NCBI GenBank assembly: GCA_963836075.1
Contig: CAWIIB010000009.1
Location: forward strand, 864,001 to 928,000
DNA from: an uncultured Acidobacteriota bacterium
GTDB lineage: Bacteria > Acidobacteriota > JAQAZP01
DNA: 64,000 nucleotides
Direction of reading: 5' to 3'
The notes below the pieces were generated by a model that was not told the origin of the DNA, searched no databases, and worked only from the letters and a program-made list of their open reading frames with translations. Shown here piece by piece: positions 8,131 to 58,161 of the stretch (positions are counted from its first letter, which is position 1; every line of letters starts with the position of its first letter). Position numbers and translations under genes: made by a program.

Positions 8131-8361
8131 ATGAAGAACCTGACCCTCGCCATCGACGAGGATCTGCTGATGACCGCACGAAAACTGGCCCTCGACCGGA
8201 ACACCTCGGTCAACCAGTTGATCCGGGATCATCTGAAGAACCTGGTGGAGGAAGACCGGAAGCGTCGGGACGCTCTGGATCGCCTCAAATCACGCATGGC
8301 CCGCGGGATTCTCGAGGTTGGAGACAAACGCTGGACAAGGGATGAACTCCATGAGCGATGA
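8131..8361 (+). CDS. Antitoxin, ribbon-helix-helix / DUF6364-like
   Basis: MKNLTLAIDEDLL..AR..A....TSVNQLIR...WTRDELHER; overlaps the PIN gene. Confidence 0.8.
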   Translation: MKNLTLAIDEDLLMTARKLALDRNTSVNQLIRDHLKNLVEEDRKRRDALDRLKSRMARGILEVGDKRWTRDELHER

Positions 8362-8776
8362 CCGGCCTGCCTTCGTGGACACCAACATCCTCGTCTACGC
8401 CCTCGACCGCTCGGAGAACCGCCGCCGTCGCCTGGCCGCGCAGCTGATCGAACAGCTCGCTGCGGGTAACCGGCTCCGCCTGAGCACCCAGGTGCTCCAG
8501 GAGTTCTTCGTCACGGTGACGAAGAAGATTCGCCGGCCCATCCCGGCGGTCAAGGCCCTGGAAGTGATGGACGACTTCGCCGTCTGGCCGGTCTTCCTCA
8601 TCGACTACGAAGCGATTCGGGAAGCGGGGGCAATCTGTCGTAGACTGAAGCTCTCCTACTGGGACACACTGATCCTCGTCGCCGCAAGGCGTTCGAACGC
8701 TGAAATCATCTATACGGAGGATCTCAACCACGGCCAGACGATCCACGGCGTGCGGATCCTCAACCCTTTCTTCTAG
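8351..8776 (+). CDS. vapC: PIN-domain (VapC-like) toxin
   Basis: FVDTNILVYA, STQVLQEF, LSYWDTLI, YTEDL. Confidence 0.88.
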   Translation: MSDDRPAFVDTNILVYALDRSENRRRRLAAQLIEQLAAGNRLRLSTQVLQEFFVTVTKKIRRPIPAVKALEVMDDFAVWPVFLIDYEAIREAGAICRRLKLSYWDTLILVAARRSNAEIIYTEDLNHGQTIHGVRILNPFF

Positions 8777-8962
8777 CCATCCATTGCCGATGAACCAATG
8801 CGCTTGCCGGTTGTCAACCGCTGGTTCCGTAATTGCCGCAGGCGTTACACCGCAGCGCAGGTGAGCGGCATCAAGCTCCATTTTTGGCACCTGTTCCGGC
8901 CGGTATGGATATTGCGATACCCGGTTTGTTGATCGGCTGCGAAACAGGAACTCGACTTCAAC

Positions 8963-8991
8963 TTGACATGCGTCACGTGACGCGTTACATT
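8963..8991 (+). promoter_or_regulatory. higBA promoter with operator palindrome, probably leaderless
   Basis: TTGACA (8963)-17 nt-TACATT (8986); GCGTCACGTGACGC palindrome in the spacer; ATG at 8997. Confidence 0.75.
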
Positions 8992-8996
8992 GATCC

Positions 8997-9278
8997 ATGA
9001 TCAAGACGTTTGCGGACAAGCGAACACGGGAGCTTTACCTGGCCGGCAAGGCGAAACGGTTCCCTGCTGATGTGGCGCCCCGGGCCGCGCGCAAACTCGA
9101 GTATGTGGACCTTGCCACAAGCATCGATGACCTCAAGGTGCCACCAGGAAATCGATTGCACCGGCTGGACGGCGATCGCAAGGGTCAATACTCAATCTCG
9201 GTCAACGAGCAATGGCGCATCTGTTTCCGGTTCGTTGACGGAGACGCCTACGACGTCGAAGTCTGTGACTATCATTGA
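8997..9278 (+). CDS. higB: HigB (RelE/ParE superfamily) toxin
   Basis: MIKTFADK...DLKVPPGNRLHRL.GDRKGQYSISVNEQWRICFRF...DYH. Confidence 0.92.
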   Translation: MIKTFADKRTRELYLAGKAKRFPADVAPRAARKLEYVDLATSIDDLKVPPGNRLHRLDGDRKGQYSISVNEQWRICFRFVDGDAYDVEVCDYH

Positions 9279-9291
9279 GACGGGGTGTGAG

Positions 9292-9606
9292 ATGAATCTC
9301 GCCAACACGGGACGAATGAAACGCCGGCCCACCCATCCCGGCGAAATGCTGCGCGAGGACTTTCTGCCGGACTTCGGATTGACGATTTCCGGGCTCGCTC
9401 GCGTGATTTGTGTCTCCCGGCAAACAGTGAACGAGCTGTTGCGGTGTCGTCGCGCCCTGAGTCCTGAAATGGCTCTCCGCCTGGGCAAGCTGTTCGGCAA
9501 CTCGCCGGAGTTCTGGCTCAATGCCCAGCGCGCGGTCGATCTGTGGGATGCGGACCAGGCGATCAAGGATGAAGTCGCCGGCATCAAGACGCTGAGCGTC
9601 GCCTAG
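9292..9606 (+). CDS. higA: HigA antitoxin (Xre-type HTH)
   Basis: PTHPGEMLREDFL...SPEMALRL...SPEFWLNAQ; ATG at 9292. Confidence 0.92.
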   Translation: MNLANTGRMKRRPTHPGEMLREDFLPDFGLTISGLARVICVSRQTVNELLRCRRALSPEMALRLGKLFGNSPEFWLNAQRAVDLWDADQAIKDEVAGIKTLSVA

Positions 9607-9624
9607 TGTGGTGTCCCTCTGCGC

Positions 9625-9795
9625 AAAAAAACGGGGTGCCGGCAGTGGTGTAAACCGCCGGCACCCCTTATATTGCCTTCCAGACATGGTCTGGACATAA
9701 ACACTGCAGGGCTGCAGGCCCAGCAGACCGATACGCGTTCAAGCCGTCTTGGTCAGCTCGAGGGCCGTGTCCATCTCTTCGGGCAGTTCGGTCTT
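9625..9795 (-). repeat. Diverged copy of the atpC 3' end plus atp terminator (direct repeat of ~11099-11268)
   Basis: Reads KTELPEEMDTALELTKTA*TRIGLLG versus AtpC KAEMPEEVDAALDLAKTAETRIGLLGS; the GGGGTGCCGGC...GCCGGCACCCC hairpin and TTATATTGCCTTCCAGAC are also duplicated. Confidence 0.9.
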
Positions 9796-9850
9796 CACAG
9801 CGCGGGCGGTGTTGTCATGCTCCACGCCAAGGATCCTCCGGTCAGGGATA

Positions 9851-9946
9851 CGACATGTCGATGAAATCGAAAAACATCGACACGTAATGTTGACATGTCG
9901 ATGCAGGTGACATATATTCTCGACATGTATTTTCGACATGTCGACA
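9851..9946. promoter_or_regulatory. Cluster of CGACATGTCG-like palindromes upstream of fic
   Basis: Perfect copies at 9851 and 9934; variants at 9878, 9891, 9908 and 9921. Confidence 0.6.
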
Positions 9947-9964
9947 AAACGGGATTTCATCATC

Positions 9965-11080
9965 ATGACAACTCCTGGCTGGTCCCCGAACAACCCGTTC
10001 AATGATCTCCCCCCACTGACCGGCACCAGCGGTATCGAAACAAAACCCGTCTTGCGGGCCTGTATCGCTGCGCGTGCAGCTCTGGCCGAGCTCAAGCAGG
10101 CGGCCGAGCTGATCCCCAATCAAAGCATGCTGATCAACACATTGCCGCTGCTCGAGGCCCAGGCCAGTTCTGAGATCGAAAGCATCGTCACGACCACCGA
10201 CAGACTGTTCAGGAACCTCCATGGCCGCGGCGAAACTGACCCGGCCACCAGGGAAGCGCTTCGCTATCGCCAGGCCCTGATGGAGGGGTATCTCGCGCTT
10301 GAAAAACGTCCCTTGTGCACCGCCACCGCCGAAACCATCTGCAGCCGGATCCGCGGTGCGGAGATGCGGGTGCGACGCGTGCCGGGCACCAGGCTTGCCG
10401 GCGGCCTTTCCGGCGAAACGATTTACACGCCTCCGGAAGGCGAGGCCCTGCTTCGTGAATTGCTCGCGGACTGGGAACGGTTTCTGAACGAGCCGAGTGA
10501 GCTCGATCCCCTCATTCGCATGGCGGCCGGACACTACCAGTTCGAAGCGATCCATCCGTTCACCGACGGCAACGGCCGTACCGGTCGCATATTGAACAGC
10601 CTCTACCTGATTCAGGAGAACCTGCTGACCCTCCCTGTTCTCTACCTGAGCCGCTACATCATCGGTCGGAAGAATGAATACTACGACAAGCTGTTGGCCG
10701 TCACGCGAGATCGGGCCTGGGAGCCATGGCTGCTCTTCATGATCGAGGGTCTACGCGAGACGGCGGTCTGGACGAATGCCAAAATCAGCGCGATCCGGGA
10801 ACTGTCCGTCGCCACGGTCGCCCACGTTCGGAAAAGACTGCCCAAGGTGTATAGCCGTGAGCTGGTCGACCTGCTCTTCACCCAACCCTACTGCCGGATC
10901 TCAAATCTTGTGGAGGCCGGTATCGCCAGGAGACAAGCCGCATCGAAATATCTCAAGCTGTTGGCAGACATCGGTGTGCTCGAGGAACATCGGGTCGGGC
11001 GTGAGAAGATTTTCGTACATCCCCGGCTAATGGAATTGTTGACCACCGACGAGAACGATTACCGCAGCCTCGGAGAGTAG
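9965..11080 (+). CDS. fic: Fic-family adenylyltransferase with N-terminal inhibitory helix and C-terminal winged HTH
   Basis: [12 protein letters not shown] catalytic motif; SSEIES inhibitory-type motif; C-terminal [18 protein letters not shown]. Start codon uncertain (9938 or 9965). Confidence 0.9.
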
Positions 11081-11184: not shown

Positions 11185-11589
11185 CTAGCTGCCCAGCAGA
11201 CCGATACGCGTTTCAGCCGTCTTTGCCAGATCGAGAGCCGCGTCCACCTCTTCGGGCATCTCGGCTTTGGCCAGATCTTCTTCCGACTGCTTGAGGTCGG
11301 CCCGGGCCTTGTCCCCGTCGATTTCGTCGGCAGCCTCGGCCTCGTTGGCCATCAGGGTCACCCGGTCGGGGAACACCTGGACAAAGCCGCCGTTGACCAT
11401 GAAGCGTTTCTCCTGGCCGTTGATCTGGACCCGCACTTCGCCGATGCCCAGTTCGGCCACCAGCGGCGTGTGCTCGGGCAGCACGCCCATGTAGCCGTCG
11501 GTTGCCGGGAAGTTGACCTCGGAGGCCTCTTCATCGGCCAGCGGCCGCTCGGGCGTCATGATCTCGACCTTGATCTTGTTGTCGGACAT
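11185..11589 (-). CDS. atpC: ATP synthase F1 epsilon
   Basis: EIMTPER, GYMGVLPEHTPL, GGFVQV; operon position. Confidence 0.95.
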   Translation of the reverse strand: MSDNKIKVEIMTPERPLADEEASEVNFPATDGYMGVLPEHTPLVAELGIGEVRVQINGQEKRFMVNGGFVQVFPDRVTLMANEAEAADEIDGDKARADLKQSEEDLAKAEMPEEVDAALDLAKTAETRIGLLGS

Positions 11590-11595
11590 CGGTGG

Positions 11596-13927
<2,332 letters not shown>

Positions 13928-13929
13928 GG

Positions 13930-15996
<2,067 letters not shown>

Positions 15997-16000
<4 letters not shown>

Positions 16001-16602
16001 TTTTCGCCTCCTACCCGCTCGAGGCTGGCGGTGAGTATCCGCCCGCGGTCCTCGTCGTTGATCGCTTCACGCACCAGCTTCTCCGCCGTCTCGATGGAGA
16101 GCTCGGCAGCGTATTCGCGCAGCTGGCGCCGGGCGCTCTTGCCCATGTTTTCAAGGTCCTTGGCCGTCTGCCGCTCGATGCGCTCGCATTCGGCCTGGGC
16201 CTGGGCCACCATGTTGCGCCCCAGCTCTTCGGCGTCGTTACCGCCCTTGGCCCGCATCTCGGCCAGCTCCTGCTCGAGGTTCGCCACCTTGCTCCGGGCC
16301 TCGGCCAGCTCGGCCTGGGCCTGGTCCCGCGCGTCGCGGGCGTCGTCGAGTTCTTTGGTGATGTTTTCGGAGCGGGAGCGGAGGAAGGAGGCGATGGGCT
16401 TGGCCAGGAAATATCCCAGCGCACCAAAGAAGATGATGAAGTTGACCGTTTTCCAGAACAGGATGCCCCAGTTGATTCCATGGTGCTCGCCGTGCCCTGC
16501 GTCCTCGCCGTGCCCGCCGGTTTCGGCCAGGCCCGTCGCCGGGGCCAGCAGCATCAGCAGCACCACTGCCGCCGCAAGGAATATCAAGGAAGTTCGTTTC
16601 AT
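15997..16602 (-). CDS. atpF: ATP synthase F0 subunit b
   Basis: VNFIIFFGAL...KPIASFLRSR followed by coiled coil; His-rich N-terminal extension. Confidence 0.88.
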
Positions 16603-16640
16603 CAGCGATGTCTCCGATTCGGTGGTTGTCTCGGTCTCGA

Positions 16641-17090
16641 TCAGGCCAGCGGGCGCCCGAGCACCTGCTCCGCTATCTGGCGTGCCATCAGCGGAATCTC
16701 CTGGGCCATCGACTCACGGGCCGTGGCCATCTCCTGCTCGAGCTCGGTCGCTTTCTCTTCCTTGATGTTGTTCAGCCGGGTGGTGGTGGCTTCAAGCTTC
16801 ACCCGGGCCTCCTCCTGGGCCTGCGATCGCGCGGCGTCCTTCATCCTGACCACGTCGGAGCGAACGTTGAGCAGACCCTGCTTTCGTTCGTCCTCCAGGC
16901 GTTCCAGCTCGCCGGAGGAGGAGCCTGCCTCGTGGAGCAGGCTCTCCTTGTCGCTGGCCCGCTTGGAAGCGATGGCCAGCAGCGGCTCGAAGAGGTTCTT
17001 CTTCAGGAGCCAGATCATGATCAGGATGGCCACCGCAACGATAATGCCCTGGGGGTACTGTTCCTTGACCGCGAGAATGATGTCTTCCAT
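16641..17090 (-). CDS. ATP synthase F0 subunit b'
   Basis: Single TM helix, LFEPLL..ASKR, coiled coil ending QVLGR; first gene of the operon. Confidence 0.8.
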   Translation of the reverse strand: MEDIILAVKEQYPQGIIVAVAILIMIWLLKKNLFEPLLAIASKRASDKESLLHEAGSSSGELERLEDERKQGLLNVRSDVVRMKDAARSQAQEEARVKLEATTTRLNNIKEEKATELEQEMATARESMAQEIPLMARQIAEQVLGRPLA

Positions 17091-17415: not shown

Positions 17416-18936
17416 TTACGGCGCCACCCCGGTCACCGTACAAGCTGCTGTATCCGTGTCCCCTGTCGCCGGGTACGGCGGCTGGTTGTAAGGGGCCGGA
17501 GTTACGTCCTCAGCCACCAGGGTGAAGACGTTGTCACCCGCCAGCGACCCGAGAGCCGGGATGTTCTGGACCCAGGAGGTGAGATAGCTGTCGCTGGCAC
17601 CCACGTTGGTGTAACCGGCACGCCAGTTGTTGTATCCCTGGCCGCCGGCCAGTGTGACATTGATCTTCCCCGCGATCCGTCGTGTTAACCCAGGGTAGAG
17701 ATTTTCCAGTTCAACAAACATGGTGCTCTGAAAGGGGAGTGTGCCGCTGGACGGCACACAGCCGAACGAAGCGGACAAAGTGATCCCTGCCGGTGAGTGG
17801 TAGCCCATGTCCGCCTGCCCCGTGTCACCGAAGCCATCGCTGCGCGTGGCCACGTCATCGAGGCAGACGACACCGGTTGGCGGCGATGCGCAGATACTCG
17901 CCGCCAGGTCGCTGCCCGCATCGACGCAGGGACTGTCCGCGGCCTGGCCCGCGGCAATCTGGGAAAGGTAGTAGTCGCCGCCAGGGCCGCTGACGAAGAG
18001 CGGGTCGAGGTCGATATTCCCTGTGCCGGGATACACGCCCCCAATATCGCAATAGTCGATCGTGCCGTAGTAGGCATAGATATCGCTTGAGAAATTTCCC
18101 CAGATTATCGAGTCGCGCAGCGTGATGATCGACTCTTCGTTGGCGTAGATGCCGGTGGCATAACCGCCGCCCACATTGTCCACGATGGTACAGCCGATGA
18201 TCGTCGCGTGGCACTGGCCGTAGTAAGAGCCGTAGAGGTAGATGGCGCCGCTCTGCCCATACAGCCAATTGTAACTGTTGTTGCCGTAAATCAGGTTGTT
18301 GAAGATCAGCGGCTCGGCGACATCATAGACCATGATGGCGCCGCTGTATTCACCGGTGTTGTAAGAGATCTCGTTGGAGATGATCAGCGGAGATCCAGAC
18401 ACGAACATCGCGCCGCCAAGGTCGAAACCCTCGTTGTTGGTGATCACGTTGCCGATGATGGTAGGCGATGCACCACAATAGATCCCGGCCACCGAATCGC
18501 TGAGAAAATTAGTGATGGTGAAACCACGGAGAACCGAATCGGGGCCCTCCCCGCTCTCGAACCAGAATGCGATGTGCTCTTCGACCCCCCATTCCCCGAG
18601 CCCGTCAAGGATGCAACTGGCCGGCCCGTTGGCCGAAGCGACAGTGATCGCCTTGCCATGGAAGTCGACCTCCCAGTTGCCGTCCCCGCTGTACGTGCCG
18701 TCGGCCACCAGCACCGTGTCGCCGTTCAGTGCGGCATTGATCCCTTCCTGGATGGCATCGTAAGGATGGTCGAGGGACCCATCCTCCAGCGGATCACTGA
18801 CCGTCGGATCGCCCGGGCCAGGGTCGTTCGGTGCGTCGTCGTCCACGTGGATGGTGGTCTGTGCGTGGAGCGTTGCGGTGAAGAGCATCATCGTCAGAGC
18901 GATGACAAGAACTGACACTGGAACACGGGATTTCAT
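17416..18936 (-). CDS. Secreted right-handed beta-helix repeat protein with conserved C-terminal domain (paralog 1)
   Basis: Signal peptide; VDDDAPNDPGPGDP...HPYDAIQEGI; GGA/GAI-Asn repeats; C-terminus DVTPAPYNQPPYPATGDTDTAACTVTGVAP. Confidence 0.85.
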   Translation of the reverse strand: MKSRVPVSVLVIALTMMLFTATLHAQTTIHVDDDAPNDPGPGDPTVSDPLEDGSLDHPYDAIQEGINAALNGDTVLVADGTYSGDGNWEVDFHGKAITVASANGPASCILDGLGEWGVEEHIAFWFESGEGPDSVLRGFTITNFLSDSVAGIYCGASPTIIGNVITNNEGFDLGGAMFVSGSPLIISNEISYNTGEYSGAIMVYDVAEPLIFNNLIYGNNSYNWLYGQSGAIYLYGSYYGQCHATIIGCTIVDNVGGGYATGIYANEESIITLRDSIIWGNFSSDIYAYYGTIDYCDIGGVYPGTGNIDLDPLFVSGPGGDYYLSQIAAGQAADSPCVDAGSDLAASICASPPTGVVCLDDVATRSDGFGDTGQADMGYHSPAGITLSASFGCVPSSGTLPFQSTMFVELENLYPGLTRRIAGKINVTLAGGQGYNNWRAGYTNVGASDSYLTSWVQNIPALGSLAGDNVFTLVAEDVTPAPYNQPPYPATGDTDTAACTVTGVAP

Positions 18937-18955
18937 CAGAATCTCTCCTCATCGT

Positions 18956-20881
18956 TCATGGGTTGACCCCAGTCACCGTACACCATGCCCTGTCAGTGCT
19001 GCCCGACGGCGAGTAGGGCGGCTGGTTGTACGGCGCCGGTGTCACGTCGGCCACCACCAGGGTGAACTTGTTCTCACCGATCACCGACCCGGTGGCCGGG
19101 ATCTGCTGGCTCCAGTTAAAGGCGAATGCCTCGCCCGGATCGAGCACCAGGTAGCCGGCCCGCCAGCTGGGGTAGTAGCTCCCGTTGGCCAGTGCCACAT
19201 TGAGCTTGCCCGAGGCCTGCCGAAACTCGCCGGCCAGCTCGTTCTGCATGCCCACCGAGATGAGCGTGCCAAAGGGGACCGTCCCCTCTGATGGCGTACA
19301 GGAGAGGCTCGCACCGATCCGGCTGAAGACCGGGTGGTGGGCGCCCATGTCGGCCGTGCCCTGGTCGTTGATCTCGTCGGTGCGGGTGGAGCGCTGGCTG
19401 AGGCAGATGGTGCCGTCGAACGGCTTCCAGCAGACTGCATCCGCCGGAGCCGAACCCGTGTCGAGGCAGGGGCTGTCGGTTGCCTGGCCCGCGGCAACCT
19501 GCGAGAGGTAGAAGTCACCATTGGGGCCGCTGACAAAGAGCGGGTCGGTGTCGATATTCCCACCGCCAAGGTGAATCGTGCTGCCGGCCTGCACATGAAT
19601 GGAGGCCTGCCCGCCTTCCACGTCAGTATGGTCGATGCTCAGCGAACTCGGTGCCGTTACGGTGCCCACAAAGCAGGCGGGGGCGCCCAGCAGGGCACTA
19701 TTGCCCCAGAGGATCGAGTCGCGAATGGTGATGTGCGCATCGCGGAACTGGCTGGTCCCGCCACCCCAGGCCTGGGTGCTGTTCTGGTGGAGCGTGCATG
19801 CCCCGACAAAGACCGTTGACATGTAGCAGTGTATGGCACCGCCATAGTCGATTGCCTGGTTGCCGGTGATAAGGGTATCCATTACCTCGCAGGTGAGGTC
19901 CGGGCTGCATTCGGTGAAACAGAGGCCTCCACCCTTGATCTCGGCGCTGTTCCCGTCAAAGATGCACGATGCAAAAAGCAGGGACGAGCGTCCCACGCAA
20001 GCGCCTCCGCCATCCAGGGAGGCCGAGTTGCCGGAGAACCGGCAGTTGAGGATTGATGCTTTCTCGCACTCCCAGACCCGCAGGCCCCCTCCGCTACCGT
20101 CCTCCGTGCTGTTGTCAACAAACACCGTGTCTCTGATCATCACATCCGCCGAAGTGCCGATATTGATCCCTGCTCCGCCCGGTACCCCGACCCCAACAAA
20201 AATCGTGTTGCCCTCGAACCGGCAGCGGTCGATCAACACCGTTCCGCAACCGGAAATGAGCAGCCCCCCGCCATACGCGGTGGTGTTGTTGCCCTCGAAG
20301 CGACAGTCGACAATGGTGGGGTTGCCGTTGGTGCAGCGCATTCCCCCCCCGGCATCATTCGCATGGCAGTCACGAACTACGCAATCCCTGACCACCGGCG
20401 ACGTGCCACGGCAACTGATACCGCCGGACGTCTGGGTGTAGGAGGTGGTGTACCCGTTTTGTACCGTGAACCCTTCCAGCACCGTGTCGGGGCCTTCCCC
20501 CGAAATGATATAGAAGCCGGTGTGCAGGTCGAACTCACTTGCCTCACAGTCCACCACGCAGGTGTCCGGACCGTTGAGTGAACGGACCGTGATCGCCTTG
20601 CCCAGGAAGTCGATGTCACGGTTGCCCTGGCCGGTGTAGAGACCGGGGCCCACGATGACTTCGTCCCCGCCCGCCGCTGCGTCGATCCCCTCCTGGATGG
20701 CATCGTACGGATGGTCGAGGGATCCGTCCTCCAGGGGGTCGCTGACCAGCGGGTCGCCCGGGCCCGGATCGCCCGGTGCGGCGTCGTCCACGTAGATGGT
20801 GGCCTGGGCGTGCAGGGGGGCGGTGAACGGCAGCAGCGCGAGCAAGAGGAGCGCTACCAGAACCGGGATACGGGATTTCAT
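18956..20881 (-). CDS. Secreted right-handed beta-helix repeat protein with conserved C-terminal domain (paralog 2)
   Basis: Same N-cap; Cys-rich CRFEGN/GGG repeats; C-terminus DVTPAPYNQPPYSPSGSTDRAWCTVTGVNP. Confidence 0.85.
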   Translation of the reverse strand: MKSRIPVLVALLLLALLPFTAPLHAQATIYVDDAAPGDPGPGDPLVSDPLEDGSLDHPYDAIQEGIDAAAGGDEVIVGPGLYTGQGNRDIDFLGKAITVRSLNGPDTCVVDCEASEFDLHTGFYIISGEGPDTVLEGFTVQNGYTTSYTQTSGGISCRGTSPVVRDCVVRDCHANDAGGGMRCTNGNPTIVDCRFEGNNTTAYGGGLLISGCGTVLIDRCRFEGNTIFVGVGVPGGAGINIGTSADVMIRDTVFVDNSTEDGSGGGLRVWECEKASILNCRFSGNSASLDGGGACVGRSSLLFASCIFDGNSAEIKGGGLCFTECSPDLTCEVMDTLITGNQAIDYGGAIHCYMSTVFVGACTLHQNSTQAWGGGTSQFRDAHITIRDSILWGNSALLGAPACFVGTVTAPSSLSIDHTDVEGGQASIHVQAGSTIHLGGGNIDTDPLFVSGPNGDFYLSQVAAGQATDSPCLDTGSAPADAVCWKPFDGTICLSQRSTRTDEINDQGTADMGAHHPVFSRIGASLSCTPSEGTVPFGTLISVGMQNELAGEFRQASGKLNVALANGSYYPSWRAGYLVLDPGEAFAFNWSQQIPATGSVIGENKFTLVVADVTPAPYNQPPYSPSGSTDRAWCTVTGVNP

Positions 20882-20928
20882 CAGGATATCCTCACACTGT
20901 TGAAAAGTTCCATCGCATCAAACGTCCA

Positions 20929-22624
20929 TCATGGCGCCACGCCGGTCACGGTGCAGGCGGCAGCGGCGCTGTCCCCGGCCGGGGGATAGGGCGGCTGGTT
21001 GTAAGGCGGCGGGGTCACGTCCGCCACGGTGAACAGGAAGCCGGTCTCACCGACCAGCGTCCTCAGGTTTGGTATGGCCTGCCACCAGCTGGTGGTGCGG
21101 GTCTGGCCGGCCGGGACGTTCTGCCAGCCCCGCCGCCAGGATGAGTCGGTACTGGCCGCCGGCCAGGGTGACATCGATCTTGTGCTGCACGCGCCGTGTC
21201 TGGCCGGCATAGGTGTTGGTCAGCGAGAGCGTGAACTGGCTGGAGAAGGGCAGCGTGCCGGCGGCCGGACTGCAGGCCATGGATGCCGCCACGGTTCCCG
21301 GCGCGGCCGGGTAGTGGTAGCCAAGGTCGGCAATGCCGGTATCGGCCACACCGCTGGTGCGGGTGGTGAGGGTGTCCAGGCAGAGGGTTTCGTCCCCGCC
21401 GCCGGTGCAGATGTTCATGGCCAGGTCGCTTCCCGCGTCGAGGCCGGGGCTGTCCTCGGCCTGGCCGTCCGCGGTCTGGCTCAGGTAGTGCTCTCCATGG
21501 GGACCGGCAATGAACAGCGGGTCGCCGGTGAGCACCGGGCTGGCCTGGATCAGGGTCATGTGGCCCACCCGCACGGTGGAGCTGGCGTCCCTGATCAGAC
21601 AGTGGTCCAGCGTGGCCGTGACCGCGCCGGAGATGCTGGGGCCCTCGCTGCCCAGCCAGAGGTTTGCCCCTTCGCCGGCCAGGTTGTGGGCAACGATGCA
21701 GTCGACGAGATCCACCGTGCAGGTTTCAAGTGAACCGGAGACCGCCAGGCAGATCCCGCCACCGTCGCCGTCAACAGTGCCGGCGCTGTTTCCCGCAATG
21801 GTGCTGTTGCGCAGAGTGGTCACCCCGCTGTCGGTGTCGAGGTCCAGGCCGTAGAGCCCGCCGCCGCTGAGATCGGCATGGTTGCCCGCCAGCAGGTTGT
21901 TGGCCAGGGACGCCGGTTCGGCGGAGATGAGGCAGATCCCGCCGCCATGCTCAGCGGCAAGGTTGCCGGTGATCCGGTTGTGATCGATTCGCGGGCTGCC
22001 CCCCACCGCCAGCAAGCCGCCGCCCTGGGTGGCGCTGTTTCCCGAAAGTGTGTTGCCCGTGATCCGCGCCGCGGAATCGAGGCAGCAGATCCCGGCGCCG
22101 CCGGTACAGCCGGTGACCACGTTGCCGATGATGGTGGGCGAACCGCCGTCGATGTAGATGCCGTGGGGATGGCCGGGCGCCCCCTCGTCATCCGAGGCCC
22201 CGGTGATGGTCAGCCCCTGGAGGACGGAGGCCGCCACCTCGCCGCTGACAAACTCGAACCCGAAACGGTCCAGGCCGGAGACCCCCTCGCAGTCCACCGT
22301 GCAGTTCTGCGGCCCGTTGGCCGACCGCACGGTGATCTTCCTGCCCAGGAAGCTCAGGTCATGGTTGCCGGCGCCGGCATACCGCCCGTCGGCCAGCAGC
22401 ACGACGCTGCCGGTGGCCGCGGCGTCCATCGCCTCCTGGATGGCGTCATAGGGGTGGTCCGGCGAACCGTCCTCCAGCGGGTCGCTGATGGCGGGGTCGC
22501 CCGGGCCGGGGTCGCCGGGCGCATCGTCGTCCACGTGGATGGTGGTCTGGGCCTGGAGCGGGACAGCGAAGAGCAGCAGCGCAAGCACCACGAGTAATGC
22601 TCGTTCGATGGTGCTGAGTTTCAT
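20929..22624 (-). CDS. Secreted beta-helix repeat protein (paralog 3) with a +1 frameshift at ~21148 inside the C-terminal domain
   Basis: ORF 21047..22624 ending DVTLAGGQY joins ORF 20929..21210 DSSWRRGWQNV; removing one base restores alignment to paralog 4 GGQDHSSWRRGWQNV. Confidence 0.8.
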
Positions 22625-22640
22625 TCCGGACCTCGTTTCC

Positions 22641-24839
22641 TCAAGGCATCCAACCGGTCACCGTGCAGGCGGCCGTGTCGGTATCCCCCGACGGCAGGTA
22701 GGGGGGCAGGTTGTAGGGCGGCGGCGTTACGTCGAGCACGGTGAGCAGGAAATCGTTGTCCCCGGCCAGCGGCTCGAGGGCCGGCAGGTTCTGTCCCCAG
22801 AAAAACCCGAACGATTCTCCGGGCTGGACGTTCTGCCACCCGCGCCGCCAGGAGGAATGGTCCTGGCCGCCGGCCAGGGTGACATCCATCTGGTACTGGA
22901 TGCGCCGGGCCAGCTTCCGGTAATCGTTGGCCATCGACACCGTGAACTGGCTGACAAAGGGCAGGGCACCGCCGGCCGGCTGGCAGCTCAGTTCACAGGA
23001 GATCGTTTTCTCGATCGGGTAGTGGTAGCCCATGTCCACCTGCCCCGTATCCCCCACCCGGTCGGTTCTGGTGGTCAGGGTGGAGGCCGGCCATTCGATC
23101 AGGGTCAGCGTGTCCAGGTCGAAATCCACCGGCACCATCACCGTGTCCGCCGGTTCGCTGCCGGTGTCCACACAGGGGCTGTCCACCGGCTGTCCGGCGG
23201 CCGTACTGGCGAGATTGTGCTCACCCACCAGGCCGACGGTGAAGAGCGGATCGGCGTCGATGATGCTCTCCCCGTACGCCCCGCCCTGGACATCGCAGTA
23301 GGACGCTGCCGCCGGGGCATAGGCCAGGTGGTACTGGTTCGGCATATTGCCCCAAATGACCGTGTCGGTGACGGTGGTGCTCCAGTAGACCTCACTGTTC
23401 ACATATATTCCACCACCGTCGGCGGCCTGGTTGCCGGCAATGGTATTGAGCCGGTAGTCGATGTAATCGGCCTCCTGGCCGATCCCGCCGCCCTCTCCGT
23501 CGGCGGAGTTTCCGACGATCAGGTTGTTGACAACCTGCGAGGACCATCCCGACGTATAGATACCGCCACCCCGGCCAGCGGCATGGTTTCGCTCGATCCT
23601 GTTGCCGGCAACGGTCCCGTGATACGAAGAGAAGGCCAGCCCGCCGCCGTTGCCCCCGGCGCTGTTCTCCTCGATGCCGTTGTTCAGAACACTCCAGCTG
23701 GCGCTGCTGATGAAGATGGCGCCGCCGGTAATGGTGGCGTGGTTGCCGGAGAAGAGGTTGTCTTTTATAACCGAGCCGCCCGACGCGCAATTGACTCCGG
23801 CGCCTCTTTCCGCCGCGTTGTCGATGAAGGTGTTGCCGATCACATAGACTTCCGAATTATACGGGGCGCCGGAGTGGTCGTATCTCGAATAGATGCAGCC
23901 TTCCGTATTCCCGGTGAACTGGTTGTCCCGAATAAGGGACGGGCTTTTATCGAACTGCATACAGAGCACACCGTTGTCGGTGAACGTATTGCCGATCACG
24001 TCTGTTTCGGCGTGGACGATGTAGATAACGGCGCTTCCCGAATCATGTCCTGAGAAAATGTTGCCGGTGATGGATGCCCGCTTTTGTTCATCCCACATCC
24101 AGCCATATATGGCACAGCCGGACTCCTGCGTGCCGGTGTAGTCGATGATGTTGGCAATGAATTCATTGTCCACGATCACCACTTGAGCATCCTGATAGTA
24201 GATGGCGCCACCGCCGGTATAGGCATGATTGTCGATGAAAACGTTGCCGATGATCTCGGCCTCCGTATCCTCACGACACTGGATCGCCCCCCCATCCTCG
24301 CCCGGGCCGCACCAGTTGTCGATGAAGATGTTTCCCCTGATGGTGGCCGGGCCCTGAATGACCCTGATGGCTCCGCCGCCGCTCCATGTCCCGCTATCCG
24401 GAGACCAGCCACCGGTGATGGTGAATCCCTCCACCGTACTTCTCGCCCCGTAATTAGCGAAATCGAATGCCCGGTGCGGGTCCGCCTCGCCTCCCTGGCA
24501 ATCGATGATGCAGTTTTCCGGGCCGTTTTCGGATTTGATGGTGACCCGCCTCTCGCGCTGGACGCCAATGTCCCGGTTCCCCTCGCCGGTGTACAGGCCG
24601 TCTCTCACCAGCACCGTGTCGCCGCCCCACCCGATCGCCATGTACCCTTCCATGATGGAATCAAAGGGATGATCCGTCGAACCGTCCTCCAGCGGATCGC
24701 TGATGGCGGGGTCGCCGGGGCCGGGGTCGCCCGGCGCGTCGTCGTCCACATACCAGGTGCTCTGGGCGTGGAGGGGGACAGCGCAGAGCAGAATCGTGAG
24801 CAGAAGCAATACGGCTGTTCCGTCTGTTCGCATGATCAA
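22641..24839 (-). CDS. Secreted right-handed beta-helix repeat protein with conserved C-terminal domain (paralog 4)
   Basis: Same N-cap; GGAI/FxxN Pmp-like repeats; C-terminus DVTPPPYNLPPYLPSGDTDTAACTVTGWMP. Confidence 0.85.
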   Translation of the reverse strand: MIMRTDGTAVLLLLTILLCAVPLHAQSTWYVDDDAPGDPGPGDPAISDPLEDGSTDHPFDSIMEGYMAIGWGGDTVLVRDGLYTGEGNRDIGVQRERRVTIKSENGPENCIIDCQGGEADPHRAFDFANYGARSTVEGFTITGGWSPDSGTWSGGGAIRVIQGPATIRGNIFIDNWCGPGEDGGAIQCREDTEAEIIGNVFIDNHAYTGGGAIYYQDAQVVIVDNEFIANIIDYTGTQESGCAIYGWMWDEQKRASITGNIFSGHDSGSAVIYIVHAETDVIGNTFTDNGVLCMQFDKSPSLIRDNQFTGNTEGCIYSRYDHSGAPYNSEVYVIGNTFIDNAAERGAGVNCASGGSVIKDNLFSGNHATITGGAIFISSASWSVLNNGIEENSAGGNGGGLAFSSYHGTVAGNRIERNHAAGRGGGIYTSGWSSQVVNNLIVGNSADGEGGGIGQEADYIDYRLNTIAGNQAADGGGIYVNSEVYWSTTVTDTVIWGNMPNQYHLAYAPAAASYCDVQGGAYGESIIDADPLFTVGLVGEHNLASTAAGQPVDSPCVDTGSEPADTVMVPVDFDLDTLTLIEWPASTLTTRTDRVGDTGQVDMGYHYPIEKTISCELSCQPAGGALPFVSQFTVSMANDYRKLARRIQYQMDVTLAGGQDHSSWRRGWQNVQPGESFGFFWGQNLPALEPLAGDNDFLLTVLDVTPPPYNLPPYLPSGDTDTAACTVTGWMP

Positions 24840-26419: not shown

Positions 26420-28228
26420 TTACATGTACCCCAGGGCTTCCAGCCGGGCGCGGGTCTCCTCGTCCACTTCCAGGGGCTGGGCGCCCTCCCCGGAATCGGG
26501 TGTGGCGGCCAGTTGGAGTTCCAGCCACCGGCGGAGCGGCTCCGCCACCTCGGGCCGGCTGAGCACCAGGTTGGTGGTTTCGCTGGGATCGGTTTCCAGG
26601 TCGTACAGTTCGCTGCCGCCATCAGAGGAGTGGATATATTTCCAGCGGCCCTGGTATACCGCCTGACGCACCCGGCGAAAGCGAGGGCCGTAGGGCCGCC
26701 TGAGGTCCTTGATCCGGGCGAAGTAGTTCTCGCCCAGGAGCGCCCGTTCCCCGGTGAGCCGGCGCAGGTCGGCGCCTTCGGCCCCGTCCGGAACGTCGAG
26801 GCCCAACGTGGAGAGGACGGTGGGCAACACGTCCACCAGGTGGGCCCGGGCCGTCACTTCACCACGCGGTTCCCCGCCCGGGAAGCGGACCATCAGCGGC
26901 ACGGCCATGGCCGGTTCGTAGACATCCTTGCTGTGCTCGAGGAGGGCGTGCTCGCCGAAATACTCGCCGTGATCGCTGAGCAGCACGATGAGGCTTTTTT
27001 CGTAGAGCCCGCGCCGGCGCAGGTCCTCCAGCAGCAGGCCCAGGTGGTGGTCGAGGTAGCTGATGGAGCCGTCGTACAGGGCGTGGAGGTGGGCCACCTC
27101 CTCCTCGCTCACCGGCTGCTGGCGGGACATGACCCTCAACTCGAAGGAGCCGTCAAAGGAAAAACCGGGGAGGCGGCCGGGGAAGGCGTTGCCGAAAGGG
27201 GGCGGAGCGTGGTGCGGCAGGTGGGCGTCCATGTAGTTTGCGAAAAGGAAGAAGGGGCGGTCCCCGTGGACGTCGAGCCAGCGCCGGATGCGGCGGTTCA
27301 GCTGCCAGGCCGACTGCTGCGGCTTGTCAAAGACCGCACGCCAGCGCTGCTCGAAAAACGTCTTCATCGACCACTGGCAGCGCAGGGGAAGGAGGTAGTT
27401 GCCGTTGGTCTTTGACTGGTAGTGCTTGAACCCCTGATCCAGTCCGGACTGGGGTGAGAGGTAGGGATTGGAGACCAGCCCGGCGGTGAGGTAGCCGTGC
27501 TCCGCCAGCATCCGGGCCAGGGTCGGTGTTCCCTGGCCGAGGGCGTAGACGTTGCTCCAGCTTGCCCTGTTGACATCTTTGGGGAGGAAGCTGCGGGCCC
27601 CGTGAGTGCTGGGATAGAGGCCGGTGAACAGGCTGGCGTGGGAGGGCACCGTCCAGGGGGCGGAACTGATGGCGTTGCGGCAGACCAGAAACTCCGGGGC
27701 CAGCCGCTGCAGGTTTGGCGAGGTGGGCCGGTGGTAGCCGTAGAGCGAGAGGTGGTCGGCCCGCACCGTGTCCAGCACCAGGATGATCACGTTGGGGGAG
27801 TGGCTGGCCGGGAGCGTGTCGCCGGCGGCCGGTTCTGCCGCCGGCGCCGGGATCTCCCGGGCCAGACGGCGCTCTTCGGCATACCCGGTGAGCGGCCCGG
27901 TGAGAGCGAAGAAGAGAAGCAGCAGGGCTGCCGCCACGGCCTCGGCCGCGCGGTTGGGGAAGGGGAGCTGCACCAGCTCGGCGGCAAAGCGGATCAGGCC
28001 GCGTCGCGGGAGAAAACCGAGCAGCAGAAAGAGCAGCAGCCCCGCAACCAGCGCCTGGCCCATGTTGAGGGCCAGCACCAGGTAGTAGACCCCCGCCGGG
28101 GTCAGGTCGCCCCGGGTGAGAATGCGGGCCACGTCGAGACCGCCGAGGATCAGGCCCACTGAGAGCGCCAGCAGCAGAGCCCGCCTGAAGAGCGCGAGAA
28201 GGCCGGGTCTGGATGGTGGTTCGGCCAT
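26420..28228 (-). CDS. Membrane-anchored sulfatase-like hydrolase/transferase (alkaline phosphatase superfamily)
   Basis: Likely start MAEPPS at 28228 overlapping the selD stop (TGATG); N-terminal TM helices; VLDTVRADH, PWTVPSHASLFTG, DAHLP, SDHGE, LEALGY. Confidence 0.85.
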   Translation of the reverse strand: MAEPPSRPGLLALFRRALLLALSVGLILGGLDVARILTRGDLTPAGVYYLVLALNMGQALVAGLLLFLLLGFLPRRGLIRFAAELVQLPFPNRAAEAVAAALLLLFFALTGPLTGYAEERRLAREIPAPAAEPAAGDTLPASHSPNVIILVLDTVRADHLSLYGYHRPTSPNLQRLAPEFLVCRNAISSAPWTVPSHASLFTGLYPSTHGARSFLPKDVNRASWSNVYALGQGTPTLARMLAEHGYLTAGLVSNPYLSPQSGLDQGFKHYQSKTNGNYLLPLRCQWSMKTFFEQRWRAVFDKPQQSAWQLNRRIRRWLDVHGDRPFFLFANYMDAHLPHHAPPPFGNAFPGRLPGFSFDGSFELRVMSRQQPVSEEEVAHLHALYDGSISYLDHHLGLLLEDLRRRGLYEKSLIVLLSDHGEYFGEHALLEHSKDVYEPAMAVPLMVRFPGGEPRGEVTARAHLVDVLPTVLSTLGLDVPDGAEGADLRRLTGERALLGENYFARIKDLRRPYGPRFRRVRQAVYQGRWKYIHSSDGGSELYDLETDPSETTNLVLSRPEVAEPLRRWLELQLAATPDSGEGAQPLEVDEETRARLEALGYM

Positions 28229-29286
28229 CAGTTCACGGAAACGGAGGGGCACTTCCCGGCCGGGACCACGCGGCCCACCACGGCGGCCATTCCGCCCTCC
28301 TCGGTGATCCGCCGGGCCATCTTCCTGGCGCTGTGCCGGTCCACCGCGATCAGCAGGCCGCCGGCGGTTTGCGGGTCGTTGAGCAGGCACTGCAGGGTCT
28401 CGTCCACACTGTCGGCGTAGCTGACGCTGCCCTGGGCGAACTCGCGATTGGTCTTCACCGCCCCGGGCATGCAGCCTTCGCCGGCCACCCGCAGCGCCCC
28501 GGGGAGGATGGGCACCGACGAGGAATCAAGCTCCACGCTCATCCCGCTGCTCCGGGCCATCTCCAGGGCGTGCACCGCCAGACCGAAACCGGTGACGTCG
28601 GTCATGGCGCTGGCCCCGAACTGGCGGGCGGTCCTCGAGGCGTTCATGTTCAGCGATGTCATCTGGAAGATGGCGGCGGCCAGTTCCTCCGCCGATGTCT
28701 TGTCCTGCTTCACGCCGTGGGTCAGCACGCCGATGCCCAGCGGCTTGGTCAGCACCAGCGCGTCCCCCTCCCGGGCGCCACCGTTGCGAATGATGCCTCC
28801 GGGGTGCACTTCGCCGGTCACCGCGTAGCCGAACTTGATCTCCTTGTCGGCGATGGAGTGACCGCCCAGCAGAACGGTGCCGGCCTCGCCCAGCTTGTCC
28901 AGGCCGCCGCGGTGCATCTGCTCCAGCACCTCCATGTCCATGCCGCTGCGGGGGAAGCCCACGAAGGAGAGCGCGGTGAGCGGCCGAGCCCCCATGGCAA
29001 AGACGTCGCTGAGTGCGTTACATGCCGCTATCTGCCCGAAAACAAAGGGGTTATCCACGACGGGAGTGAGGATGTCGATGGTCTGTACCATGGCCAGATC
29101 ATCACGGATCAGGTAGATCCCGCAGTCCTCGCTGGCCTCGTACCCGGCGAGAACTTTTGAGTCGTCCACCCGCGGCAGGCTGCCCAACACACGCTCCAGG
29201 ACCCCCGGAGCAAGCTTGGCCGCTCATCCGCCGCTGGAAACCGCGCGGGTCAGACGGACTTCTTCATTCTTTGGTTCATCGCTCAT
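28228..29286 (-). CDS. selD: Selenide, water dikinase (selenophosphate synthetase), selenocysteine-containing
   Basis: ATG at 29286 after AAGGA gives MSDEPKNEEVRLTRAVSSGG-U(TGA 29226-29224)-AAKLAPGVL, in frame with ORF 28228..29190 (NALSDVFAMG, GGHS, TDVTGFGL, DPQTAGGLL). Confidence 0.93.
29193..29211 (-). promoter_or_regulatory. Putative bacterial SECIS hairpin of selD
   Basis: GCUCCGG-GGGUC-CUGGAGC hairpin begins 12 nt after the in-frame UGA; G-containing loop. Confidence 0.7.
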
Positions 29287-38573: not shown

Positions 38574-38822
38574 TCACGCGGGCGGGGGATCGAAGCCCCC
38601 GGGATGGAAGGGGTGGCACTTGAGCAGCCGCTTCAGGGCCAGGAGGCCGCCGGCCAGTACACCCTTCCGGTCAATTACCGCCCGGGCATACTCCGAGCAG
38701 GTAGGATGAAAGCGGCAACTTGGGGGAAGAAGGGGTGAGAGCGTCAGCTTGTACAGCTTGAGTAGAGCGCAAACGCCAATCCTCGGAATGAGGATCAGCC
38801 TGAATCTCGTGTTTCGCTGCAC
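38574..38822 (-). CDS. yidD: Membrane protein insertion efficiency factor
   Basis: [27 protein letters not shown]. Confidence 0.95.
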
Positions 38823-39268
38823 TGGTTCCGGGTGTTGCGAGCCGGATCACGATCCGGCTTCTCGTGCCCTTGCCTTCCGTAAAATCTGTTCAGCCGCCTG
38901 ATGACGATACGAAATTCGTCCTCCAGTGTTCTGAGGTCCACATCCCTGATGCTCTTCTTGGCATTGACCACCAGGTCCAGGGGTTGGGCCAGCGCGAGGC
39001 GGTTTTTTCTGAATACCTCGCGCAGCAACCGCTTGGCCCGGTTGCGAACCACGGCATTGCCAATTTTCCTGGAGACGGTCAGGCCGATCCGGGAACGGTC
39101 CCCCTCCGCCACAGCATGATAGACCACCATGGTGCGGGAGAAGAGCGCGTTCTTTTCCCCGTAGATCTGCTTGTAGCGGCGGCCCCTGGTGATCCGGTCT
39201 TCAGGCCGGAATGACTGGATGCCTCTTTTGCTCAAGGGGTTCCCGTCCCGGGGTGTGAAGACCCTCAT
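38795..39268 (-). CDS. rnpA: Ribonuclease P protein component
   Basis: [25 protein letters not shown]; start uncertain. Confidence 0.93.
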
Positions 39269-39323
39269 GGCCGCTGTTCGGAGGGGACCGATGCGAATCG
39301 GAGAGCTCGGGGCCGAGGGCGCC

Positions 39324-39458: not shown

Positions 39459-39599
39459 AATCCTTACCTTTCTATCCAATCAAAAATCGAACTTGGTATT
39501 GTAGGGAGGGCACCAGGCCTTGTCAAGAAAACCAGCCCGCTCTTTTAAGGGCCTGTCTTCGCTTTTTTTTCGCTGCCCGCCGTGCGGCAACGGGGCCCG

Positions 39600-41208: not shown

Positions 41209-41214
41209 ACTTGC

Positions 41215-55882: not shown

Positions 55883-58161
55883 CTACGGCACCGTCACGTC
55901 GATGGTCACCGCGTGGGAGTCTGCCGCGCCGGCGGGCGGAAAGGGCGGCTGGTTGTAGGGCGCCGGTGTAACGTCCTCGGCGTGGAGGGTGAACACGTTC
56001 TCGCCGTCCAGCGAGCTGAACGCCGGAAGGTTTATTTTCACACTGGTCTCGAAGCGGTTGTAGGGCGCCACATTGGTGAAGCCGGCCCGGTGGTTGTACA
56101 GGAAAGTGCCGTTGGCCAACAGGGTGTCCAGGCGGAAGGCCAGCCGGCGGTAGAACGCGCAGTTGTTGGCCATGGTCATGCCGAAGTTGACCGAGAAGGG
56201 GGCCGTGCCGCCGGTTAGGGAGCTGCGCAGCTCGGTCACCACCTGGGGGAAGAGGTCCACGCCCTGGGCCACCGAAGGGCTGTTCGGGTCGAGGTAGTTG
56301 ACCCGAAGCTCGACGGGCAGCGGCTGATAGGCGATGATCTCGGTTTCCAGGGCGATCCGGCTGCCGTCGACGATGTAGTTGGTATTGCCGGTGGCCGGCT
56401 CGTCGTCATACAGCACGCTCCACTGCAGCCAGTCATTGTCCGGGTCCGGGGCACAGCCGTCTCCCGGGCCGCAGTATCCCGCCGCCAGAACCGGGAACGG
56501 GTCCCACCAGGCGACCTCCTCGGCCTCGCTTTCATCGAAGACGCCGGTGCGGTAGACCACGCTCGAGTTGGTGGGGTTGGAGAGCAGAGATCTCCCACCG
56601 TTTGCCGGCCGCGCCGGTGAGGTGGACGATGCCCGGCTCGTTGGCCAGGTTGGGGGTGCCGTCGCCATACACATTTGAGCCCAGGCGGCGGGGCATGGTG
56701 GCGCTGAAGGGCAGCTCCTTGAGAAAAAGTGTTTTCATCGTCGACTGGCCCTGGTCGTCCTCGGGCCGGTGGTTCACCAGGTCGGTGTCCACCAGGTAGT
56801 TCCGTGCCGCCTCACCGGTGCCGTGCTTGTACGGCGACGGCGGTGAGTAGGCCGCCGGGTCGAAGTTCTCTTCCGTCATCACCCGGTAGACGAAGTCGCC
56901 GAAAATCTCGGCGAGGCGATCCTTGGGCGTGGGGCCGTGCCCCCCCTGGATGACGAGGAAGGTGGTGTGATCGATGCCCCGCTCGCTGAGCTTGCGGTCC
57001 ATGGTGATGAAGTTGGTCACCGGGAAGAAACTGTCGTGGGTCCCGGCTGCCAGATAGACGTACTTTCCCTGCAGCTGATTGAGGTTGTCGGTCCCCCCCG
57101 CCTCGCCGCCGTAGTCGGGGCAGAGTTGATCCGCCAGGTCGGGGTCGGAGGTGCCGAAGACCGGCGTCAGTGCCGGTTGGGGCGATGATCCCGGGGGTGA
57201 GGTGTGGCTGTACCTGGTACGCGTCCAGCCCACCGTAGAGCCGGTAGAGGTTGGCCAGGTCGGGGTTGGTGGCGATGGGGATTGAGCTCAGTTTGCCCAT
57301 GGCCAGCGGAGGAGAACTGGCGAACACGCCGATCACGTCGTAATAATCCTGCTCTCCGTGAATCACGTTCTCGGCCATGGTCAGAGCGGCAAAGGCGCCC
57401 CGCGAGGAGCCGCGGACAATGACCTTCTCCGGGTCGCACTGACAGAGGATGCGCAGGGCGCGAAACAGCCAGCCGACGGCCGCCCGCGATCCGCTGTTCG
57501 CCCCGATGCAGCCATACCCGCCGGCGTTCCAAACCACATAGATCACCCCGCGGTCGTTGGGGTCGTTGTGATACGACTGGATTGAGGTGAGAAAACCGAG
57601 GGGCAGGGAGTTGCCGCCCGGGTCGAAAATGAAGTCGTTGAGGCTGGTCGTGGCGTATCCGGTGATCTGGACCACCACCGGGTAGCGCCGCTGCGGGTCG
57701 GGGGAGTAGTTCGGGGGAAAGAAGATACTGAAGGCGCTGTTCAGGATCTGGCCGCTTCTTTTCACCACGTAGTTGGGGACCAGCTGTACCGAGTTGATGT
57801 TCTCCTGCAGGAACCCGATATCCGAAACCACCTCTATTCCGTCGATGCCGAAGCTCTGGGCGTATCCGCCGCAACGGGCGCGAAAGGCGTCCAGCTCGCT
57901 CTGCCGAATGCCCACCGGGTCGGTGATCATCCAGTCGTAGTCATTGTATTGCGGAGTGAAGTCAGCACCCCGGCCCGGGTCGGGGCTCGTGCCCACACGT
58001 TCCCAGACGTATCCCTCGTTTAGCTCTTCGTCGTAGTGATAGTTGGTGATCACCACGTAAGGGTCGGCGCCGCCATCATCCCGGGCCACGGCCGCCGCCG
58101 GGAAAAAGAGGGCCAGAACAAGAACCGAGGCCAGCAATGGGCAGGTATACTTCTTCAACAT
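55883..58161 (-). CDS. Secreted alpha/beta-hydrolase-like protein with the same conserved C-terminal domain, split by two +1 frameshifts
   Basis: Signal peptide from ATG 58161; GSSRG (ORF 56812..58182); AGTHD and GGHG (ORF 56532..57233); C-terminus DVTPAPYNQPPFPPAG...VTVP (ORF 55883..56674). Confidence 0.7.

Follow-up and report, generated by a model that had tools for sequence, protein, structure and literature searches.

A C-terminal domain that may anchor about 200 exported proteins to the surface of an uncultured Acidobacteriota bacterium

In a stretch of 64,000 nucleotides from an uncultured Acidobacteriota bacterium (GenBank assembly GCA_963836075.1, contig CAWIIB010000009.1, positions 864,001 to 928,000; the whole stretch is called the window below) five genes encoding signal-peptide proteins end in copies of one domain of about 121 amino acids (aa), here called the tail domain. 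Copies of this domain are common to about 200 exported proteins of the same genome, and the reading that we favour, giving it about an even chance of being right, is that the domain acts as a permanent, uncleaved and non-covalent surface anchor. The window is part of a 6.2-Mb, 64% GC genome of a sediment bacterium (G000), which was compared with two relatives (G001 and G002); the three genomes belong to the same genus and are 91-100% complete.

A profile hidden Markov model (HMM) was first built from four window copies and matched other genes of the genome at E-values down to ~1e-58. The refined model was searched against 104,780 six-frame open reading frames (ORFs) and gave 226 matches at 219 distinct loci; about 5.9% of the genome lies in ORFs that end in the domain. 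Among 197 near-full copies 189 end at most 6 residues from the stop codon; the other eight comprise two truly internal copies, two with 7-8 extra residues, three apparently cut by frameshifts and one loop-less copy whose alignment ended early. Proline is the last residue in 163 of the 189 terminal copies. The earlier note on this DNA, made from the sequence alone, had described the domain as strictly terminal and as always ending in proline; both are strong tendencies and not rules, and internal copies are rare. The median pairwise identity of the copies is 48%. Both cysteines were present in 125 of 186 full domains, neither in 28 and only one in 33 (odds ratio 17.5, which overstates the significance because the sequences are related), so that the pair co-varies as expected of the disulfide proposed in the note.

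A signal peptide was predicted for 128 of 164 long carriers with a lax heuristic; given that the same rule also passes 1292 of 2899 genes of the genome, this demonstrates enrichment only. Of 59 complete ORFs in the relatives, 53 pass the lax signal-peptide rule and in a further two the signal peptide lies upstream of a UGA codon, the domain is terminal in 58 of the 59, and a later membrane helix was found in 0 of the 53 signal-peptide carriers, in agreement with the claim that no transmembrane helix is present. No conserved linker or cleavage motif was detected upstream of the domain, where no residue exceeded 21% at any of 23 positions. Two small proteins (L049, G000:C1:1239395-1239847; L050, G000:C9:1846327-1846878) consist of little beyond a signal peptide and a divergent domain copy; L049 has an orthologue in G001 (60%) and none was found in G002. 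In four carriers (G000:C1:1062004-1062969, plus strand; G000:C9:2705602-2706561, minus strand; L096; L116) the signal peptide is followed by an in-frame TGA and then P-[YN]-C. The TGA is kept in the relatives and a tRNA-Sec is present, and the exported protein probably has a UxxC redox motif with selenocysteine.

Strong matches to the domain were obtained in 3 of 31 and 3 of 401 Acidobacteriota genomes, all of one genus, which bears out the suggestion that it is lineage-specific; the genome samples include no relatives ranked between genus and phylum, and two other genomes of the phylum gave marginal matches (E ~0.005). Among the matches listed for a genome collection, 73 loci came from two assemblies (one Acidobacteriota metagenome-assembled genome). 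In a library of 1.84 billion proteins the domain was present in 505 clusters, and of the best 150 of these 146 had a terminal copy, eight had two full copies (seven in tandem) and four had only an internal or N-terminal copy. At metagenome loci 78 of 79 domains were terminal; at 49 of 74 loci a neighbouring gene shared 70% identity or more with one of the genes of this genome and 11 loci had no such match, and the range may therefore be wider than the genus. The search thus returned what the note had expected of a sorting or anchoring module, namely many terminal matches on diverse signal-peptide proteins in a restricted clade. No domain was found in viral contigs.

No name for the domain was attached to any of 118 short homologues, and sequence searches of Pfam, NCBIfam and PDB gave no match. 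Run on 51 members, NCBIfam gave no relevant model and three chance-level matches on single members, and Pfam gave nothing on four isolated window tails. We found no description of the domain in the literature, where a listing in supplementary tables remains possible. Many-copy terminal modules on exported proteins are a well-known kind of thing; the family itself is in none of the searched libraries, and the note's statement that the motif matches no known family stands in so far as no catalogued family in Pfam or NCBIfam gave a strong match.

AlphaFold2 run on 51 sequences predicted an all-beta, Ig-like sandwich (pLDDT 97.2). The top fold match of the model was Vibrio cholerae RbmA (Z 12.7, range 11.9-12.7; root-mean-square deviation (rmsd) 2.4; 106 residues aligned), followed by Factor XIII (Z 12.0), CARDB (Z 10.8) and PKD (Z 9.4); as judged from the predicted structure these matches are generic, RbmA being tied with unrelated Ig folds. 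Solved type IX secretion system (T9SS) tails were not among the fold matches listed. The CARDB match (PDB 3idu/2kl6) had an rmsd of 2.1-2.3 over 96-100 residues, and in hhalign CARDB reached a probability of 22-35% and a score of 24-25, compared with at most 13 for 20 column shuffles; the alignment superposes the conserved Asn that closes strand B and the Asp that closes strand F. PF07705 (CARDB) had no match in G000 with controls positive, nor on the carriers scanned, and hhalign against PKD (PF18911) gave a probability of 1-4%, at or near shuffle level. The domain is best seen as a putative remote CARDB-like offshoot and not as a CARDB member, judging from the modelled fold and the profile comparison; the note had named CARDB and PKD as families to which a strong match would speak against a new system, and what was found is a remote likeness to CARDB only. 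In the ESM Atlas the window copy had matches below 0.9, all of them to unnamed or generic Ig clusters, and for a loop-less copy CARDB clusters were among the look-alikes (0.89, 0.87), which are leads only.

Over 345 sequences, conservation is concentrated in a 16-residue FG loop (D92-G107) and in R34, R35, A37, R39, W53, R54 and G56. Seven positions of the loop (D92, T94, P97, N99, P101, P102 and G107) are each conserved at 99-100%, and the loop contains an almost invariant PYNQPPY within DVTPxPYNQPPY. Strands A, B, E and F are free to vary at alternate, exposed positions, and from this alternation we read the loop and the Arg/Trp residues as a probable single binding patch. The domain is net acidic (mean -3.6) and lysine makes up only 0.4% of its residues. 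A divergent subfamily (L169-L173 and L032) has neither the PYNQPPY loop nor several of the conserved residues and carries extra cysteines in CNG and CNC motifs; in L173 and L032 a different loop replaces PYNQPPY. An intramolecular ester or isopeptide bond, raised by Foldseek matches, was rejected because there is no conserved lysine and no glutamine in the last strand.

Clustering of all C-termini of the genome yielded 183 proteins with the Ig-like tail, 130 with an FG-GAP tail and eight with dockerin-type ends. The FG-GAP tail is about 336 aa long, has six FG-GAP repeats and sits on some 130-140 proteins (e.g. L250-L269), with 52-72% identity between unrelated passengers; the repeats are split across its ends, which suggests a Velcro propeller. 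This tail was found in only 3 of 101 genomes of the phylum. Dockerin is a docking module. None of 209 ORFs with the Ig-like tail also contained a propeller or dockerin, compared with 139 propeller and nine dockerin carriers. A propeller-tailed paralogue was found for 72 of 159 passengers and a dockerin-tailed one for 27, with identities of up to 76% over 645 aa. Tails are also exchanged: near-identical tails are present on non-homologous neighbouring passengers (98% for a beta-helix protein and a C25 protein, 93% in another case), and only 47 of 153 tails have their closest match on a passenger that is homologous. Orthologues retained the tail in 39 of 43 cases, and in these 39 pairs the median identity was 77% for the tail and 85% for the passenger.

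The 172 passengers fell into 87 clusters. A Pfam scan of 40 carrier genes (38 cluster representatives and the two stand-alone copies) gave matches in 30 and none in the tail; the passenger families include beta-helix, FG-GAP, SBBP, LVIVD, BNR, C25, S8, M10, M23, M28, PAD_porph, ASST, CotH, GEVED, PETase-like and others. This repertoire is the usual cargo list of the T9SS. Among the best 120 of 3580 homologues of one PPAD-like passenger, five had the Ig-like tail described here, 31 FlgD_ig, 12 Por_Secre_tail (40 with either, counted by eye) and five Dockerin_1, and small groups had other unnamed tails. Two such tails (P0210, P0213, P0217 and P0219; P0192, P0199 and P0200) measure about 100-120 aa; both end in proline and have no match to the domain profile, and one is in Planctomycetes-labelled proteins. 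The cargo is thus common to different phyla, with a tail that follows the host.

The cell is diderm, as indicated by Omp85 and TamB-Omp85 proteins. A type II secretion system (T2SS) operon of ordinary appearance is located at G000:C1:2167454-2179630 (L124-L134) and its secretin has a C-terminal cohesin. The genome gave four cohesin matches, has nine dockerin proteins and a lipoprotein with a cohesin (L178), and dockerin tails could be recruited to this secretin. Secretins were found in 41 of 41 Acidobacteriota searched, a tally that includes one unpublished genome on which no conclusion here rests. PorV (PF19572) was found in 0 of the 3 genomes with a positive control in B. thetaiotaomicron, Por_Secre_tail (PF18962) in 0 of 3 in a search that was positive in 4 of 151 genomes of the phylum, and exosortase (PF09721) in 0 of 3 with a working control. 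SprA (PF14349; 0 of 3 and 0 of 151) and PorP (PF11751; 0 of 3) also gave no match, nor did they in the control genomes. No SprA-sized barrel was present among the largest ORFs of the assembly, which contains frameshifts. The genome has 20 C25-like ORFs or fragments, and the PorU model run on three of them gave 71 bits, 84 bits and no match (cut-off 420). A polysaccharide export pathway is present, with Wza, Wzc and BBP2 barrels and with glycosyltransferase, sulfotransferase and sulfatase genes nearby.

The search for a partner of the tail in the genome gave no candidate, neither the co-occurring translocon nor the peptidase that the earlier note had suggested looking for. The largest predicted barrels are two TamB-POTRA-Omp85 fusions of about 2180 aa (L180, L181), and a heuristic barrel screen, with Pfam and NCBIfam run on some candidates, returned known barrel families or unassigned proteins (such as L136 and L137) and no genus-specific translocon. 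No operon was seen around the two stand-alone genes, the internal copies or the most divergent copies, and no scaffold with repeated receptors was found among 501 tail-less secreted proteins. A ranking by codon bias was uninformative because the bias is nearly flat. The only SLH match is a TPR lipoprotein, and a weak FlgD_ig match lies in an unrelated protein.

According to the anchor reading, the Sec system would take the protein across the inner membrane, and in the periplasm the tail is predicted to adopt its Ig-like sandwich fold, in most copies with a disulfide (Cys8-Cys114) joining its first and last strands. The folded protein would then pass the outer membrane through the T2SS, a route proposed because it is the sole general route for folded proteins that was found, and the DVTPxPYNQPPY loop with the Arg/Trp residues next to it on strands C and C' would bind a component of the cell's own surface, so that the cell or its matrix may retain enzymes and adhesins. 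The FG-GAP propeller and dockerin tails would be alternative anchors for the same slot. We favour an anchor because three unrelated folds, one of them a known docking module, occupy this slot, because the domain tolerates tandem and internal placement, as a binding module permits, and because neither a linker nor any trace of the T9SS shuttle was found. Mostly terminal copies on signal-peptide carriers, the conserved FG loop with its Arg/Trp neighbours and the presence of the T2SS operon and of polysaccharide export genes also count in its favour. As the likeliest ligand we propose, only tentatively, polysaccharide made by the cell itself; a surface protein comes next and is somewhat less probable. 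The choice of a glycan is made by analogy: in V. cholerae exactly two folds, the fibronectin type III (FnIII) domains of RbmA and a Velcro-closed propeller, tie secreted proteins to exopolysaccharide (PMC5605196, PMC10102183), a pair that may mirror the two tails here.

Several observations weigh against an anchor. No partner or ligand was identified in the genome, and the match to RbmA (Z 12.7) is tied with unrelated Ig folds such as Factor XIII (Z 12.0), a common fold being no proof of function. The FG loop is absent from the divergent, partly Cys-rich subfamily and hence dispensable for some copies, and a net acidic domain is poorly suited to an anionic ligand unless the Arg patch acts locally. 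The exposure of this patch was deduced from strand alternation and not from model coordinates. The terminal bias and the final proline (163/189) would better fit a signal that is read at the C-terminus, and T9SS- or FlgD-type tails occupy the same place in 40 of the best 120 passenger homologues, the T9SS tail being an export signal. Finally, the T2SS can only be permissive, because every one of the Acidobacteriota searched has secretins.

The main rival reading, which we consider less likely, is that the tail is an export signal instead, a portable secretion determinant read in the periplasm by the T2SS or by a yet-unrecognised outer-membrane machine, with the propeller and dockerin tails representing other signals or other routes. 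This would explain the near-strict terminal position and the conserved last strand ending in proline, and it is consistent with the T9SS-substrate-like cargo (C25, PAD_porph, S8, M28, M10, GEVED, SBBP, LVIVD, CotH), with the Por_Secre_tail or FlgD_ig ends of the PPAD-like homologues and with a secretin whose cohesin could recruit dockerin tails. A precedent is provided by Pel3/PelI, in which a loop of an Fn3 domain is a T2SS secretion determinant (PMC7949064). However, the barrel screen gave no genus-specific translocon and its largest barrels were TamB-Omp85 fusions, the T2SS genes are ordinary with secretins throughout the phylum sample where the tail is not, internal and N-terminal copies exist, and three unrelated folds share the slot. 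A separate reading, a divergent T9SS-type signal with a PorV-like shuttle and a C25 protease acting as sortase that joins the passenger to lipopolysaccharide, seems very improbable. The terminal Ig-like domain on T9SS-type cargo and the 20 C25-like ORFs or fragments would fit it, but PorV and Por_Secre_tail were found in none of the three genomes in searches that worked elsewhere, the three C25 proteins tested scored far below the PorU cut-off (84, 71 and none against 420), and no linker precedes the domain. Features of T9SS tails were taken from PMC4804311 and PMC10202324; the latter describes lysines of motif E as required in type A tails, compared with the 0.4% lysine of the domain here.

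That the domain has no common partner at all, and serves as a cap for stability or folding or as a spacer in the periplasm, having spread by recombination and gene conversion, appears improbable. The shuffling of tails among unrelated neighbours (98% and 93% identical), the small share of closest tails on homologous passengers and the lower conservation of tail than of passenger between orthologues (77% versus 85%, n=39) all agree with such a cap. On the other hand, seven positions of a 16-residue loop held at 99-100% despite a median identity of 48% imply a common ligand, and the mutual exclusion with two other tails together with host-specific tail replacement imply one functional slot. In the boldest reading of the data, which we regard as unlikely, this deep lineage would have evolved its own sorting code for about 340 exported proteins. 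Two genus-specific tails, the Ig domain (taken as derived from CARDB) and the six-repeat FG-GAP propeller, would stand in for the T9SS tail on cargo acquired horizontally, and they would be read by dedicated, unrecognised envelope machinery or bind each other into multi-enzyme surface assemblies. If true, this would be a sorting system independent of the T9SS.

Whichever function it has, the domain marks much of the secretome of this organism, with about 6% of the genome in ORFs that end in it, and its profile provides an immediate secretome marker for an uncultured lineage. The cargo is common to T9SS bacteria and Planctomycetes, each host adding its own tail, which points to a general rule that exported proteins need a host-specific terminal module, T9SS tails being one solution among others. 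Being small, confidently folded and provided with one conserved patch, the domain would also make easy bait for the ligand. Were the ligand the polysaccharide of the cell, the domain would be a new self-anchoring module usable for surface display; with a component of the secretion machinery as partner, it would instead serve as a portable T2SS signal and bear on how the T2SS picks its substrates.

All five window copies are on the minus strand at the places given in the note and each ends in proline followed by a stop codon; copies 1-4 have both cysteines and copy 5 has neither, also as described. Gene 1 (17416..18936) encodes 506 aa with a signal peptide, a right-handed beta-helix passenger (PF13229 at aa 137-291) and the tail (aa 386-506; 17416..17781), which was the copy used for modelling of the Ig-like beta-sandwich. 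Gene 2 (18956..20881; 641 aa) has a signal peptide, a beta-helix/PMP-repeat passenger and the tail at aa 521-641 (18956..19321). Gene 3 (20929..22624) has a signal peptide, a beta-helix passenger and a tail (20929..21295) split across two frames by a frameshift near 21149, the called ORF (21047-22624) exiting the domain half-way. A public contig is identical to window positions 21149-21393 and its match ends at 21149 with 11 letters unaligned, which suggests, without proving it, that this frameshift is an assembly error. Gene 4 (22641..24839; about 730 aa) starts at a TTG at 24839 with ATG codons just inside and has a signal peptide, a PMP-repeat/beta-helix-type passenger and the tail at aa 612-732 (22641..23006). 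Gene 5 (55883..58161; tail 55883..56248) has a signal peptide and a passenger without Pfam match, in which a GSSRG motif resembles a nucleophile elbow by eye. It is spread over three frames by two frameshifts in the assembly (breaks near 57200 and 56575). The orthologues have no such breaks and carry the domain at the end, in G002 as an open frame of 769 aa and in G001 over 736 aa that extend past the start of the contig. The in-frame tails (copies 1, 2, 4 and 5) are 37-54% identical in pairs. Genes 1-4 are an array of tandem paralogues, all beta-helix proteins with a common N-terminal motif, so that the window holds two passenger types only; the note's description of the passengers as unrelated does not apply to four of these five proteins and is true genome-wide, where the diversity is real.

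An Rfam search of the window gave nothing matching the tail domain. By eye, the array lies directly upstream of ATP synthase b'/b/delta/alpha/gamma/beta/epsilon genes (window 11185-17090), the genes for subunits a and c being elsewhere (G000:C1:2195133-2196235). Toxin-antitoxin-like pairs (PIN-type, HigBA-type and Fic-type) and an Xre/RES-type pair were seen at 8131-11080 and 51075-51925, and 38795-49119 is a replication-origin region with rnpA/yidC, dnaA, dnaN, recF, gyrB and gyrA, with parAB and mnmG/mnmE nearby (both by eye). Sulfatase-like proteins at 26420-28390 and about 60 genes genome-wide share a short C-terminal ending, R-L-x-A-L-G-Y-x, which formed families of 53 and nine in the C-terminus clustering.

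Compared with known systems, the tail resembles the PEP-CTERM/exosortase tag in being a many-copy, lineage-restricted C-terminal element and differs in having neither a membrane helix nor a basic cluster, with PF09721 in none of the three genomes. Dockerin/cohesin and SLH modules are likewise terminal, uncleaved docking modules on diverse enzymes, and dockerin substitutes for the tail on paralogues here and on homologues elsewhere; dockerin (PF00404) consists of paired EF-hand-like repeats, whereas the domain here is predicted to be all-beta, the nine dockerin proteins are a separate set, and no repeated-receptor scaffold of the cohesin kind was found among the secreted proteins searched. CARDB (PF07705; PDB 3idu/2kl6) has the same fold and a weak profile-profile similarity, but its FG loop is acidic where the tail has DVTPxPYNQPPY, and it is often repeated where the tail is single and terminal. 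In V. cholerae an Ig-type sandwich and a Velcro propeller, in RbmA and in Bap1/RbmC, are separate binders of the cell's own polysaccharide (PMC5605196, PMC10102183); RbmA is only 8-14% identical to the tail and is one dimeric scaffold protein, unlike a tail on about 200 proteins whose binding is conjectural. The T9SS type A C-terminal domain (PF18962/TIGR04183) and the FlgD_ig tails (PF13860) are about 75 aa long compared with about 121 aa here and have no sequence match to the domain, which has a predicted disulfide, a Pro-rich FG loop, almost no lysine and no linker, and neither PorV (three genomes) nor a PorU orthologue (three of the 20 C25-like ORFs scanned) was found. What these tails share with the domain is a terminal Ig-like beta-sandwich on Sec-exported proteins of the same cargo families, at the same place on homologous passengers.

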